DNA of 32,000 nucleotides, taken from contig CAZYLT010000021.1 in assembly GCA_964648855.1 (NCBI GenBank), positions 10,218-42,217 of the forward strand. Direction: 5' to 3'. The translations under genes and the position numbers were made by a program. Below, piece after piece: positions 1,072 through 11,970 of the stretch; position 1 is the stretch's first letter, and every line of letters begins with the position of its first letter. The notes under the pieces were generated by a model. The model had not been told where the DNA came from and did no database searches. It saw only the letters and a program-made list of their open reading frames with translations. The stretch is from an uncultured archaeon. Its GTDB lineage: Archaea > Asgardarchaeota > Thorarchaeia > Thorarchaeales > Thorarchaeaceae.

Positions 1072-1601
1072 ATCCTTCCCAACTGATGTCAATTTCCTTC
1101 TAATGATTTCCGGCTAGCGAGTAAATAATATGCGACACCAAATATTTGTCCTTTCATCCACTGACAATTTCAAGCACTCTGCTATTTCAATTTCATTTGA
1201 TTCATGTATCGCCATGTGTATACACAAATCGTTGCTCCAAGGGGATTCAACGTCATTATGATGTAAACAAAAAGCACAGAATCATTCCGAAATAACCTAT
1301 CTATAGGTCAACCTCTGAGCTCAATTCCTTTCGAGTTGATATCAAAGGGGGATGCTGTCCATTGAATGCATTGTTCCTCTCATTTTAGCAAATCACAACC
1401 TATGTTTTACTGAACCCTCAACTCTCTTTATCACCTCATTCTTCTTCATGTAATTCACTCTCCGTTTGTAAACAACGTTCCCCCTTCTTTTCTTCATATA
1501 TTGCCCACTGTAAAGATAATCTATCTGCTAGTTTTGGGAGGACTGGCCACCCCGAAACATGATCCAGCCTTCCACCCCGGTCTGCCACCAGAGCCGCCTT
1601 T

Positions 1602-1615
1602 GCAATATCCTTAAA
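1602..1615 (+). promoter_or_regulatory. BRE/TATA-like motif GCAATATCCTTAAA, copy 1, ~30 bp upstream of the tRNA 5'-half copy
   Basis: The exact 14-mer recurs at 1881-1894. Spacing to 1645 fits an archaeal tRNA promoter. Confidence 0.5.
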
Positions 1616-1644
1616 TTTCCCCAGCGTTCTGCCGCTCGTGAACT

Positions 1645-1680
1645 GCGGCCGTAGTCTAGTTTTATGATAGAAGCCTTCCA
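1645..1680 (+). pseudogene. tRNA-Gly(TCC) 5' half, ending at position 37
   Basis: GCGGCCGTAGTCTAGTTTTATGATAGAAGCCTTCCA versus the intact gene GCGGCCGTTGTCTAGGGGCTAGGATTCCACCCTTCCG; non-tRNA sequence follows. Confidence 0.85.
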
Positions 1681-1880
1681 CTGAATTGTCCGTCATAGCG
1701 GGGTCTGGGCCCTGACTCAAGCATGACAGAACCCTTCCACTGATACGTCCCTTCTTTCACCTGAAGTTGTCGCAAAGAAGATGCCACCCTTCCACTAATA
1801 TGTCGCATTGGAATATCGATTGAGGACTGTTCAATCTATGATCCAGGCCTTCCACCGATATACCCAGAGAGTTCACTCTA

Positions 1881-1894
1881 GCAATATCCTTAAA
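1881..1894 (+). promoter_or_regulatory. BRE/TATA-like motif GCAATATCCTTAAA, copy 2
   Basis: Identical to 1602-1615. Both copies follow a repeat variant reading CCTTCCA-CC rather than CCTTCCA-CT. Confidence 0.45.
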
Positions 1895-1992
1895 ACAAGT
1901 GTTCAGACACCCTTGACTCCAGAGGGACAATCGGGATTTGGGTCGAATCGATATGATCCAACCCTTCCACTGATCGTCCTTTCTAGACTCCC

Positions 1993-8751: not shown

Positions 8752-8760
8752 TGTCCTATA

Positions 8761-8804
8761 CTTCCAAGGCTGTAGCCAAGGTTCAATTCCCGACGGAAGC
8801 ACAA
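8761..8804 (+). repeat. Degenerate tRNA-Gly 3' half (att-like scar 1)
   Basis: 34/44 ungapped identity to 2024-2067; begins 10 bp after the stop codon of the 1538-aa gene. Confidence 0.85.
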
Positions 8805-8919
8805 CTATTTCAGCCCTAGAATTGAATATTTACAGAAATGGTCCATCTCTAGTTCTAAGCATACATATATTATGAGAAGGTTTTTCTGGTTTCACCTTCA
8901 TATTTTGCCTGGTGGGACG

Positions 8920-9960
8920 GTGCGAATACTACATACCTCTGATTTACATTTGACCAACGAAAGGCCGGAAACCATTGACGCCTTGAAAGAGTTACTAAAA
9001 GTGGCTTCTACGAAGGAGGTAGACTTTCTCACTATCAGTGGTGATGTTTTTGAAAATCCGTCAGAAGCAGACAAGCTAAGAACGAAACTGAGGAATCTTT
9101 TCAAAGAAGTAGACTATAGAATAATTGCAATACCGGGAAACCATGATGGAACTATACTAAGCCAAGATTTTGATTTTGGTTTTGAGGTGATCAATGAGAT
9201 CCCCTTTGGTACCATAATTTCGGACGACTTGTCAATTATAGGGATTCCCTATACTGACAGCCCTTCAGATGAGCTACTGCTAAATCTTAAGAAAGCACAA
9301 CAAGACTGCCCTATTCGTATTTTACTTGTTCACTGTACGCTGGATTGGGGATACAGTTCTGAATCCTATGGTGATGAAGATGAAAAATCCTATTTTCCAG
9401 TTAGCCGCGACCAGCTTTCTGCACTGGGCTTTGATTACATTCTTGCAGGACATTTTCATTCAAGAACTGATATAATCAAATTGAAGGGAGGAGGCACCTT
9501 TGTCTACCCCGGCTCTCCAGTGTCACATACCAGAAAGGAGAGCGAAAAACGGCATGCTGTTCTCATTGATACGGAATCAAACTCCTTGGAATCTATTCCT
9601 TTGAATACTAGATATTTCGACCAATTAGTCCTAAAGGTTGCGCCGGGGAAAGAGCAGGAAACAGAATCCGAAATTCGGGAATGGTATTCTGAACGAAAAG
9701 ACGATGACTGTGAAATGCACATCATTGTCAGAGGTGCAATAGAAAGGAAAGAAAAGGAATTCGAAGATTCGATTGCTGAGATAGCTCCTGATACCGAGAT
9801 TTGGAATGAAACCAAAGATGTGAAGACCGTTTTAAAGCACGACTTGTTCAGACGATTCAAAAAGAAAATAGAGAACAATGAACAGATTGCCGATATCGAG
9901 GGTATCGAGGAAACGGTAATGGAGGTCATGTCCAATTTAATGGGAGCGGATGAGATATGA
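8920..9960 (+). CDS. Mre11/SbcD-like (YhaO-type) metallophosphoesterase DNA exonuclease
   Basis: HTSDLHL, SGDVFE, PGNHD, LAGHFH and YPGSP motifs. GTG start at 8920 after GGTGG (the ORF track starts at 8872). Confidence 0.9.
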   Translation: MRILHTSDLHLTNERPETIDALKELLKVASTKEVDFLTISGDVFENPSEADKLRTKLRNLFKEVDYRIIAIPGNHDGTILSQDFDFGFEVINEIPFGTIISDDLSIIGIPYTDSPSDELLLNLKKAQQDCPIRILLVHCTLDWGYSSESYGDEDEKSYFPVSRDQLSALGFDYILAGHFHSRTDIIKLKGGGTFVYPGSPVSHTRKESEKRHAVLIDTESNSLESIPLNTRYFDQLVLKVAPGKEQETESEIREWYSERKDDDCEMHIIVRGAIERKEKEFEDSIAEIAPDTEIWNETKDVKTVLKHDLFRRFKKKIENNEQIADIEGIEETVMEVMSNLMGADEI

Positions 9961-11924
9961 CCTTTAAGATTCGCCAAATCGGTATCAGTAAATATGGTCC
10001 TCTAGAGGACTGTAAAATAGATCTCAATCCGAATTTCCAATGCATTTTTGGGCCTAACGAATCGGGAAAGACACTGATAATCGATGCAGTGTTAAAGATG
10101 GCTCTGCCCTCCAAACTTCACACATATCTTGCAGAGGATTTGCAGAGAGTTGATGGTAAAGCTCATGGATGGATTACAATTGATGTGGATGGGACGAAAC
10201 ACGAAATATCGGATAGTAAAAAAGCAAACGAGATTTTGCCAATAGATCTGGAAAACCTCCGTGACCTCCTCGTTGTGCGTAACTCAGACTTGTATAATTT
10301 CAATGAGGCAGGATGTCTTAGCAGAGCAACTGACTTGATGATGGGGTTGCGTACTGAAGAGATTGAAAGGATACAAGAGGCTTTGAAAGAAAGAGGTCAG
10401 CTAACTCCCACAAATCTTGATATTTCTACAGCTGGTGGCCCAGAAAGTGCAGGAAATCAAATAAGTCTGGCAAGGGAACTTCGTTCTGATATCGGGAAAT
10501 ACCTTGCAGAGGTTGGAAACACAGAGGTTTCAGAGGCAGAGTCAAAAATAATACGGTTAACCACTGAACTAGAAGCAAGCAAACATATCGAAGCAGAACT
10601 GATTGAAGCTAGGAACCTGGCGGAATTCAGGAAACTGAAGGCATCTTTGGAAAGGGGGCGCAATGCCTTCGGACAATTAGTTGAATCACAGGAGGATGTC
10701 GTTCAGGCTGGCATTAGTGAGATATCCACCTATCGTGATTTTGACCAGGATTACAATAGTCTTGAGCAGAAACAGCAAAAAGTAGGCAGGTGGATTATTC
10801 TAAGTCTAACAGGATCTGTTCTATTAGGGATACTCTCCCAATTGCTCAACAGCATTATAGTGGGAGTCACTCAGTCGCTAGTTATGCTAGGTATTTTCAT
10901 TGGTATGCTAGTGTACTGGAGGAGTATCTCCAAGGATTTGTATACAATCAGAGAGTCTAGAAAGTCAATTATCTACATAGCACGGGACCTAGGGTCAAAT
11001 ACCGTAGAAGTGGAAGAAGCTATTGAAGCAATCAGAAAGAAAAGCAAAGAAATTGAAGAATGGAAAGACTCTCTAACTGAAAGCGTTGGTAGCATCAAGT
11101 CTCTGTTAGATTTGAAATCAGGTACAAAAGAGGAAGCCTTGGCACTAGCTGAACAAGCTGTTGCTAATCGTAAGCCCGATATCAACGAAGACATTGACCG
11201 GAAATATGATGATAATAAGTACAAAGAAGTCAAGGAATCTATAGAAGAGAAGAGGGAACGAATAGAAAAACTCCGGGAGAATCTTAGAAATCACCAGAGC
11301 TCCTTAGGAAATTTCAAGACAAGATTTGGAAAGCTCCATTTTCAACAATACCTAGGTCGTCCAGCAGATTACAGTCCAGACAGTATCGACTCTTTGCCAA
11401 AAGTCCAAGTCGAATTGAAACATTTCATATCATCAATTGAAGAAACTGCAACTCAATGCGCGATTGCTGTGAAACTCTTTGATGAGCTTGCTGAAGAAGA
11501 GCAAAACAAAATATCAGAATTACTTTCAAAGAACAGTCGCGCCTCAGAGATTTTTTCCAATATAACCCATAGACGCTACTCGGAAATAACTTACTTATCA
11601 GAAAAAAAGGCAATCCGGGTTAGAAGGCAAGACGGCAGTGAGATGCGAATTTTGAATTTGAGTAAGGGGACGAAGGACCAAATGTATCTGTCCGTCCGGC
11701 TTGCATTAGCCGAACAGATTCTAAGAGGAAAACCTGGGTTTTTTGTTCTAGATGATCCTTTCATTGCATCTGATTTGGAGCGACGAGCAATACAGATTGA
11801 GATGTTGAAGAAAATGACTGATGAAGGGTGGCAGGTTCTGTACTTCACGGCTAATGAAAACCTTGCCAACGAACTCAAATCAAAATTCAAGACAAACTAT
11901 GTTACTCTCCCCCCTCTGAAGTGA
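9957..11924 (+). CDS. Rad50/SbcC-like (YhaN-type) SMC ATPase with internal transmembrane helices
   Basis: Walker A GPNESGKT, coiled coils, signature LSKGTKDQ, Walker B/D-loop FVLDDPF. A hydrophobic pair WIILSL...MLVYW lies mid-protein. ATGA overlap with the upstream gene. Confidence 0.9.
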   Translation: MTFKIRQIGISKYGPLEDCKIDLNPNFQCIFGPNESGKTLIIDAVLKMALPSKLHTYLAEDLQRVDGKAHGWITIDVDGTKHEISDSKKANEILPIDLENLRDLLVVRNSDLYNFNEAGCLSRATDLMMGLRTEEIERIQEALKERGQLTPTNLDISTAGGPESAGNQISLARELRSDIGKYLAEVGNTEVSEAESKIIRLTTELEASKHIEAELIEARNLAEFRKLKASLERGRNAFGQLVESQEDVVQAGISEISTYRDFDQDYNSLEQKQQKVGRWIILSLTGSVLLGILSQLLNSIIVGVTQSLVMLGIFIGMLVYWRSISKDLYTIRESRKSIIYIARDLGSNTVEVEEAIEAIRKKSKEIEEWKDSLTESVGSIKSLLDLKSGTKEEALALAEQAVANRKPDINEDIDRKYDDNKYKEVKESIEEKRERIEKLRENLRNHQSSLGNFKTRFGKLHFQQYLGRPADYSPDSIDSLPKVQVELKHFISSIEETATQCAIAVKLFDELAEEEQNKISELLSKNSRASEIFSNITHRRYSEITYLSEKKAIRVRRQDGSEMRILNLSKGTKDQMYLSVRLALAEQILRGKPGFFVLDDPFIASDLERRAIQIEMLKKMTDEGWQVLYFTANENLANELKSKFKTNYVTLPPLK

Positions 11925-11970
11925 CCCTTCCAAGGTTCTGACCCGGGTTCAATTCCCGGCGGCCGCACCA
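11924..11970 (+). repeat. tRNA-Gly 3' half (att-like scar 2), CCA included
   Basis: 41/47 identity to 2021-2067; overlaps the stop codon of the SMC ATPase. Confidence 0.93.

Follow-up and report, generated by a model that had tools for sequence, protein, structure and literature searches.

Remnants of other tRNA-Gly(UCC) alleles on both sides of a Thorarchaeota tRNA gene: possible traces of nested insertion at the anticodon loop

Here we describe a tRNA-Gly(UCC) gene that is flanked on both sides by pieces of other tRNA-Gly alleles. It lies in a stretch of 32,000 nucleotides, hereafter the window, comprising positions 10218-42217 of contig C21 of the Thorarchaeota metagenome-assembled genome (MAG) G000 (3.1 Mb, 44.7% G+C, 94.6% complete); other G numbers denote relatives, and g numbers denote genera of one family. 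In this Thorarchaeota family the gene is single and essential. Upstream of the intact copy lie six modules (R1-R6) of a 28-nt family, and displaced 3' halves are found 6.7 and 9.9 kb downstream of it. The best reading, which is incomplete and to which we give about as much credence as doubt, is that in this family tRNA-Gly(UCC) acts as a recombination hotspot, at which insertions into CCTTCCA, each supplying a tRNA of its own, have become nested. We prefer it because the stems of the modules match natural alleles, 5/5 pairings link the two sides, an island of about 10 kb is absent from a genome of the same genus, and an upstream and a downstream piece joined to each other are recognized as tRNA-Gly. 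The pieces are as follows, in window coordinates.

1559-1583, plus strand: R1, ATGATCCAGCCTTCCACCCCGGTCT, with a variant right arm; further copies at C21:1855 and C21:6013, upstream of the window
1609-1616, plus strand: TATA-like box CCTTAAAT, read from the sequence, 28 nt upstream of the R2 5' half
1645-1691, plus strand: R2, with acceptor strand GCGGCCG, a degenerate D arm, stem GAAGC and loop CTTCCA, then the CTGAATTGTCC motif
1723-1750, plus strand: R3, stem GAACC, pairing 5/5 with GGTTC of the outer 3' half
1778-1805, plus strand: R4, stem CCACC, the same as in the intact gene
1838-1865, plus strand: R5, stem CAGGC, opening a 115-nt unit with the GTTCACTC hairpin and the TATA-like box CCTTAAAA (1888-1895)
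1953-1980, plus strand: R6, stem CAACC, between the TATA-like box and the tRNA
1993-2067, plus strand: intact tRNA-Gly(TCC), called by ARAGORN and matched in Rfam (57.4 bits), anticodon stem CCACC:GGTGG
8758-8804, plus strand: inner 3' half, CTTCCA A GGCTG ..., with decayed T stem and acceptor
11924-11970, plus strand: outer 3' half, CCTTCCA A GGTTC ... CGGCCGCACCA, intact

The stretch is covered by contigs from four DNA runs (source mats) and is therefore not an assembly artefact of one MAG. A repeat search recovered the 28-nt family with starts at 1664, 1723, 1778, 1838 and 1953 (spacings 59, 55, 60 and 115), and the 3' halves as a 47-nt family (2021-2067, 8758-8804 at 74% and 11924-11970 at 87%). 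The modules cover tRNA positions 21-37 and read A(T/G)GAT, then a single nucleotide, the five nucleotides of the stem and CTTCCA; exactly at 37/38 they are fused to a non-tRNA motif, CTGAYNNGTCC, from which the right arm of R1 deviates (CCCCGGTCT). Identity between modules is 68-82%, and the intervals are unique and 27-35 nt long. R2 is the sole complete 5' half of the array and has a TATA box of its own, CCTTAAAT, which judging by its sequence would be a promoter; a module of this type also precedes the tRNA in relatives. Both 115-nt units contain a TATA-like box. From the core of R6 to that of the tRNA's own loop the distance is 60 nt, equal to the unit length, and R6 probably lies inside the pre-tRNA leader. 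On the downstream side, all 3' halves open with (G/C)C-CTTCCA-A right behind the stop codon of the cargo.

This architecture, with modules clustered upstream of tRNA-Gly(UCC), is present in at least six genera of the family (g1, g3, g5, g6, g7 and g12), and six tRNA-Gly loci in other genera of the family are array-less. A search of 193 genomes from 26 other families of the phylum gave scattered single matches only and no clustered array. A collection of 61 modules was drawn from 20 loci in 16 relatives and from this contig, and in all of them tRNA position 37 is joined to C(T/C)(G/A)A. Since modules were selected by their CTTCCA core and this first tetramer, independent evidence lies only in the rest of the motif and in the tRNA-like left arm.

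An earlier note on this DNA had read the variable nucleotides of the modules as 5' strands of anticodon stems and proposed that several tRNA-Gly alleles are recorded in the array. Comparison with the alleles of relatives bore this out: of 53 module stems from 15 arrays, 32 have exactly the sequence of one of 12 tRNA-Gly(UCC) 5' stem alleles that occur naturally. Natural counterparts exist for CCACC (G018), CAGGC (G004, G046), GAAGC (G062) and CCAGC (G009, G065, G074) and, with both strands, for GAACC:GGTTC (G061) and CAGCC:GGCTG (G047), so that the inner 3' half carries the current stem of G047. The particular pairings that had been claimed were also reproduced, with R3 matching the outer half at five positions and R2 at four of five, R5 and R6 each matching the inner GGCTG at four of five, and R4 having the stem of the intact gene. 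For R1, the proposed reading as CAGC fitting GGCTG had to be revised; it is better taken as CCAGC without nucleotide 26, with the partner GCTGG, a natural allele in the three genomes just named for CCAGC.

The stem pattern exceeds chance. We treated six displaced 3' halves as independent (G000 outer, G065/G055, G062, G046, G000 inner and G047), and the first four of these have a 5/5 partner module in their own array, with one G-U pair in G046, against an expectation of 0.9-1.3 from random arrays (P 0.003-0.012); the G000 inner half and that of G047 reach 4/5. The partner is the module nearest to the tRNA in G062 and G046, and the nested order is contradicted at no locus. When the R2 5' half was joined in silico to the outer 3' half, ARAGORN called a tRNA-Gly(tcc), and it found no tRNA in two chimeras containing the inner half.

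Genes for tRNAs are classic landing sites of mobile DNA, where integration normally involves an integrase and leaves a duplicate of a single side of the gene. If islands had integrated serially in this ordinary way at the tRNA 3' part (the anticodon-loop class), and the upstream repeats had arisen independently of them by local duplication of the 5' region of the gene, this would account for the 47-nt direct repeats that flank the downstream cassettes, as in classical tRNA islands, and deletion between these repeats would explain the genomes without 3' halves. We nevertheless regard this explanation as very unlikely. The outer GGTTC forms only two of five pairs with the present CCACC, and the inner GGCTG is likewise unpaired with it; because the outer half misfits the present 5' strand, ordinary 3'-side integration alone fails. 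Moreover, the module stems are foreign alleles, the resident allele being found in its own array in 1 of 13 genomes only, and the matching between modules and 3' halves is above chance. Sublocation classes of islands integrated in tRNA genes, the anticodon loop included, were reportedly set out by Williams in 2002. Islands and proviruses of the anticodon-loop class share with this locus a crossover in the 7-nt loop, inserted DNA lying between direct repeats of the tRNA's 3' part, tandem or nested build-up at one tRNA and defence-like cargo. They differ from it in that here the displacement affects both old sides of the gene, a complete new tRNA is brought in, the 5' pieces form a short-period array fused to a conserved non-tRNA motif, and no integrase was found in the islands or the genome. 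Of the features of tyrosine-integrase islands, the flanking tRNA repeat is present; a terminal integrase gene is lacking, and so is the usual arrangement in which the resident 5' part stays in use and one side is duplicated.

An empty counterpart of the locus, of the kind that the earlier note had pointed to, was found by alignment with G001, a Candidatus Thorarchaeota MAG of the same genus that lacks 2068-12023, the island of about 10 kb. In G001, a tRNA of allele CGACC:GGTCG is followed by ~420 nt including an omegaRNA remnant and then by the sequence that starts here at 12034. By position, the outer 3' half corresponds to the 3' half of the G001 tRNA, and upstream homology between the two genomes spans R2-R3 and ends right after the motif of R3. 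The ~10 kb are therefore an insertion or deletion difference. The island and its downstream edge contain the following.

2068-4070, minus strand: TnpB element, with its omegaRNA and right end at the tRNA 3' end, tnpB at 2203-3897 and a left-end/promoter region to ~4070
4135-8751, plus strand: giant open reading frame (ORF) of 1538 aa, divergent partner of tnpB, with its stop 9 nt before the inner 3' half
8872-11924, plus strand: cassette of a Mre11/SbcD-like phosphoesterase (8872-9960) and a Rad50/SMC-like ATPase (9957-11924), the latter gene ending at the outer 3' half
12021-12085, minus strand: second TnpB omegaRNA remnant (nhmmer E 5.2e-07), just downstream of the outer 3' half and orthologous to the remnant in G001

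More distant relatives share other parts of the locus. G000 and G047, which belong to different genera, have in common a block with 77.6% nucleotide identity, which runs from R3 across the tRNA and TnpB as far as the beginning of the giant ORF; at the protein level TnpB is 88% and the giant ORF 50% identical. For topoisomerase IB, identity amounts to 93% between G000 and G001 and to 66-68% in amino acids in two other-genus Asgard MAGs (that of G047 itself not being in the comparison), and set against this latter value the identities of the block and of TnpB suggest that the block moves. The R6-plus-tRNA arrangement is kept in G018 (82%). Within genus g5, G055 has a GAAGC module, a CGAGC tRNA, a single-gene cassette and a GCTTC 3' half, and G065 has GAAGC and CGAGC modules, a CCAGC tRNA and the same GCTTC 3' half. 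The extra 61-nt unit of G065 contains the module ATGATCCGAGCCTTCCA, which equals positions 21-37 of the live tRNA of G055, and by their sequences the two loci look like successive steps. In the same genus, one R(GAAGC)-motif-hairpin-TATA-leader module stands before tRNAs of four different alleles, and in G061, G022 and G074 the same R(GAAGC)-promoter module lies ahead of tRNAs with different alleles; a GGCTTC..GAAGCC pairing is limited to orthologous units of g5.

Nested insertion would always use the same exact junction, which separates positions 37 and 38 within the CCTTCCA of the anticodon loop. The incoming segment, whether circular or linear, would consist of CTGAYNNGTCC, a leader that may include a promoter, an entire tRNA-Gly gene belonging to a different allele, the cargo and a right end of the form ...(G/C)CCTTCCA. 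The resident gene would be split, its 5' side staying upstream and becoming an R module by fusion to the incoming motif, and its 3' half being pushed downstream, behind the cargo. For the window we infer an order of events in which R2/R3 would go with the outer 3' half and enclose the Mre11/Rad50-like cassette, a later allele (~CAGCC) would go with the inner 3' half and enclose TnpB and the giant-ORF module, and the present CCACC:GGTGG gene would be the newest; candidates for the enzyme, equally conjectural, are considered below. Secondary events would include the loss of positions 1-20, the gain or loss of units when modules recombine with one another, deletions between repeated 3' halves, and the addition of further cassettes upstream, between tRNA 5' starts and R modules.

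A number of observations weigh against this reading or limit it. Positions 1-20 are found only in R2 here and in one module each of G018 and G062, and even the apparently recent G065 module lacks them; with a start at position 21, most modules are not merely 5' halves that were displaced, and a simple model does not predict them. A unit of 55-61 nt (roughly 57 nt) recurs in many genera, and its length is made up of the motif, a short leader and 31 nt of 5' half, a part that is not tRNA-like. Between G000 and G001 the modules are ~86% identical and the intervening spacer is barely alignable, and between G000 and G047 R4 is almost identical and the spacer different. As modules are better kept than spacers, they appear to be constrained or repeatedly re-created rather than passive scars, and nested insertion alone leaves the ~57-nt unit, the invariant motif and the conservation of the modules not explained. 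On the side of the pairings, the inner 3' half has no 5/5 partner (best 4/5), the relatives share ancestry, and the cases are few and not fully independent.

The cassettes upstream of the array are a further difficulty. The series extends beyond the window with two more R1 copies and a 315-bp repeat (L017, G000:C21 1855-11800). A 25-nt stretch is identical in all three R1 copies, which border cassettes of 4.2 kb (S9 peptidase of the prolyl oligopeptidase type and an FG-GAP protein) and 5.8 kb (nucleotidyltransferase, NosD-like beta-helix protein and a 589-aa ORF), and the 315-bp repeat flanks both cassettes and ends at tRNA position 15. The upstream cassettes have a module as right border and, as left border, a tRNA 5' start that ends at position 9, 15, 17 or 21. 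Compared with the exact 37/38 junction, these variable ends make the 5' side look homology-driven or illegitimate. No match to PF00589 or PF00239 (tyrosine and serine recombinases) was obtained in the 94.6%-complete genome, with controls matching, and no recombinase or Y1 transposase was found in the cassettes examined, nor did Pfam detect a recombinase domain in the island ORFs. Finally, joined or circular forms were not observed. Unit-number variants are present in DNA contigs from the source mats, and joints in such contigs (2067>12024, 1659>1963, 1691>1780 and 1858>1954) have short sides, with the intervening sequence not known; since the sides are short and the joints may come from related strains, we take them as a hint of variation only.

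The Russian-doll insertion of the earlier note therefore survives in part. The alleles, their pairing in an order compatible with nesting, G001, the chimera of R2 and the outer half and the steps within g5 speak for it, and what it leaves unaccounted for are the modules without positions 1-20, the ~57-nt unit and its conserved modules, the lack of a recombinase, the variable upstream borders and the lack of joined forms.

A possible, though in our view unlikely, alternative is that the R modules are selected cis elements, either recombination sites of a cassette platform (attI/attC-like) or operator-like sites in a promoter region shared by the tRNA-Gly and TnpB/giant-ORF genes, their likeness to alleles arising by gene conversion with the neighbouring gene. 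It would fit the retention of modules where spacers are not retained, the constant position of one module 30-40 nt upstream of the TATA-like box of the tRNA, the R1-type 25-nt perfect direct repeats bordering kb-sized cassettes, and the double-R modules that border cassettes at several loci of genus g3. In addition, at every tnpB copy the conserved left-end/promoter region between the gene and its divergent partner contains the palindrome CTGACCnnnnGGTCAG adjoining the TATA box, and within this palindrome lies CTGAC..GTC. However, selection on cis elements does not by itself explain why 3' halves pair within their own array, it leaves R2 as a full 5' half with its own TATA box unexplained, no recombinase or regulator was identified, and the tnpB left-end profile has no significant match in the arrays.

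The platform version of this idea recalls integrons, which Ghaly et al. reportedly described from archaea in 2022. Like integron arrays, the locus gathers recombinase-less cassettes at one platform, with sites of ~60 nt that have conserved ends and a variable middle; unlike them, it has no IntI-type recombinase (no PF00589 match) and its sites are tRNA-derived. An attC-like hairpin is not apparent either, with fold z-scores of the units between +0.4 and -2.2 and a complementarity P of 0.65. In particular, hairpins of the spacers were discarded as a candidate feature (z-scores +0.43 to -2.17), as was complementarity of the stems to their own upstream sequence, which equals the permuted control (mean 4.38 vs 4.39). 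Gene capture by SSV-type integrases in Sulfolobus chromosomes, reportedly described by She et al. in 2001, offers another parallel, since there too an archaeal tRNA locus gathers captured elements unable to leave, with partial tRNA repeats as borders. There, however, a partitioned integrase gene overlaps the att site, whereas the frame that crosses R1/R2 here is without homologue. This 94-aa minus-strand frame (P0001) was rejected as coding, having no homologue among longer proteins or elsewhere in the genome; its two copies diverge much more as proteins than as DNA, too much for a coding sequence, and it is not a partitioned integrase.

We next consider the TnpB element, the omegaRNA end of which abuts the tRNA. 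The 564-aa TnpB carries RuvC-like and zinc-finger (TNB) domains by profile matches (PF07282 E 2.3e-11; PADLOC Cas12f E 8e-20; NCBIfam guided_TnpB E 7.8e-25, below the cut-off of that model), and profiles also match the omegaRNA (E 2.5e-14) and the left end (E 5.9e-41) at 2068-4070. In an alignment of ten copies, the omegaRNA is conserved to its terminal hairpin and then diverges, and the scaffold overlaps the tnpB 3' end. The giant ORF has no family match in Pfam, NCBIfam or PADLOC. Each of the four full tnpB paralogues in the genome (45-59% identical) has a giant ORF (1540-1830 aa, 27-29% identical) as divergent partner, the other pairs lying at G000:C19:~36400-43700, C28:~2800-9900 and C4:~179300-186800, and together tnpB and giant ORF look like an old two-gene system rather than a plain insertion sequence. 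PF01797 (Y1 transposase TnpA) has no match in G000, with control genomes matching. Profile matches of the omegaRNA lie beside tRNA-Gly in seven genomes, and its end abuts the tRNA in 7/8 array loci vs 0/6 array-less loci, a contrast that is confounded by shared ancestry.

Two further observations concern the tnpB copies. At G000:C28:9786-10172, the right end of a tnpB copy abuts a 20-nt tRNA 3' fragment (GGTTCGATTCCCGCGCCCTG, tRNA strand) that is not part of the tRNA-His gene 140 nt away; an array was searched for at this tRNA-His and none was found. The scaffold segment GAAGGGTGGAA of the omegaRNA (e.g. in G000:C19 and C28) is the exact complement of tRNA-Gly positions 25-35 (TTCCACCCTTC, window 2016-2027), which we hold to be coincidental because the tRNA-adjacent copy has GGGCAG instead.

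These data allow a more specific proposal, which we consider distinctly unlikely. The R module(s), leader, tRNA-Gly, TnpB with its omegaRNA and giant ORF would together be a self-inserting element, in which a TnpB guide antisense to the tRNA 3' end would find tRNA-Gly(UCC), cutting or insertion would occur at a fixed distance in the anticodon loop, the element's own tRNA-Gly would spare the host, and the giant protein, PD-(D/E)xK/ATPase-like, would act as the recombination partner; the array would then be a chronological record of replaced alleles. A related case is the tRNA-directed homing of type V-K CRISPR-associated transposons (bioRxiv 10.1101/2021.02.06.429022; cited in 10.1101/2025.07.27.667033). 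IS200/IS605 TnpB elements and V-K homing share with the locus a TnpB/Cas12 protein, a guide-encoding end that abuts the tRNA 3' end and cargo nearby. They differ in that here no TnpA or Tn7-like genes were found, the partner is an uncharacterised giant ORF, and the insertion junction is inside the tRNA and not downstream of it. By the features of IS200/IS605, TnpB domains and an omegaRNA scaffold at the right end are present and Y1 TnpA is missing.

The position of tnpB, on the strand that reads through the array and adjoining it with a Cas12f-like protein, also raises the question of whether the modules could be the repeats, and the 27-35-nt intervals the spacers, of a guide array, either CRISPR-like or linked to the omegaRNA, that would be read from the minus strand downstream of tnpB. 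The period of 55-60 nt, the unique intervals and the co-occurrence of the array with a tRNA-adjacent omegaRNA (7/8 vs 0/6) are in line with this, but we find it highly improbable. Identity between the repeats is no more than 68-82%, no array accompanies the other three tnpB/giant-ORF pairs of the genome, an antisense tRNA separates the omegaRNA from the array, the omegaRNA profile does not match the array, the co-occurrence suffers from the shared ancestry mentioned above, and a guide array does not predict that the variable 5-mers are tRNA alleles. A CRISPR array proper was rejected: the repeats are not near-identical, their variable part is a tRNA stem, and neither cas1/cas2 nor any other Cas family matched in Pfam scans of the larger window ORFs (not every ORF) and of the upstream 10 kb. 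Homology of module plus motif to the omegaRNA 3' end or to the left end was rejected as well, the short likenesses CACAGAAGTCC, GTTCACTC and CTGACCTGTC having no significant nhmmer match in any array.

Separate 5' and 3' pieces with complementary anticodon-stem strands are, on the other hand, what a split or tri-split trans-spliced tRNA-Gly would show, as in Nanoarchaeum or Caldivirga, in the latter of which tRNA-Gly is split at 37/38. The earlier note had set this possibility aside for lack of a complementary leader and trailer, rightly so, as we found no complement of the motif near the 3' halves, upstream of which there are instead a second copy of the loop and the stop codons of the cargo. 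With an intact, high-scoring tRNA-Gly(TCC) present, CTTCCA on both kinds of piece (which therefore overlap), the acceptor strand missing from most modules, the inner half decayed and the introns of this genome's tRNAs beginning unlike the motif, a split gene is extremely improbable here, and it was rejected given the contiguous gene and the lack of a trailer and leader able to form a bulge-helix-bulge. An intron reading of the motif was discarded on the same comparison with the G000 tRNA introns. A C/D-box small RNA (ATGAT ... CTGA) was likewise discarded, by eye only: its guide would be sense to the tRNA, with at most 5-7 bp to any tRNA site. Recently split tRNAs have been found next to mobile elements (Chan et al. 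2011, PMC3218864). Split and tri-split tRNAs as a group resemble the present pieces in being parted at 37/38, in having complementary stem strands and in linking tRNA disruption to mobile DNA. They differ in that here the gene is intact, the pieces overlap in the loop without complementary leader or trailer, and the pieces are relics and not working parts.

In the literature searched, we found no description of such arrays. If nested insertion is right, an essential single-copy tRNA gene would have been replaced repeatedly across a whole archaeal family, with both old sides kept as an ordered record, by a process that delivers recombinase-less cassettes such as the defence-like Mre11/Rad50 pair, surface proteins and the module of TnpB and giant ORF. 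Should the TnpB/giant-protein pair prove to be the enzyme, it would represent a new RNA-guided insertion system in the archaea most closely related to eukaryotes; should the enzyme be another, a separate site-specific activity at CCTTCCA remains to be found. The locus could in addition serve as a natural marker for gene flow between Thorarchaeota lineages.

Some other features of the genome and the window deserve mention. ARAGORN called 17 tRNAs in G000 without the intron option and 42 with it, several of these calls being doubtful, and many of the tRNAs bear introns at or near 37/38. Downstream of the island, the window encodes a PIN-domain protein (13785-14174) and a leucine-rich-repeat protein (19435-20055). 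Further on, at 26164-28170, lies the gene of the 668-aa topoisomerase IB, which is of the eukaryote type and whose nearest non-Asgard relatives in the genome collection are from Anaerolineae (41-53%) and Nitrososphaeria.

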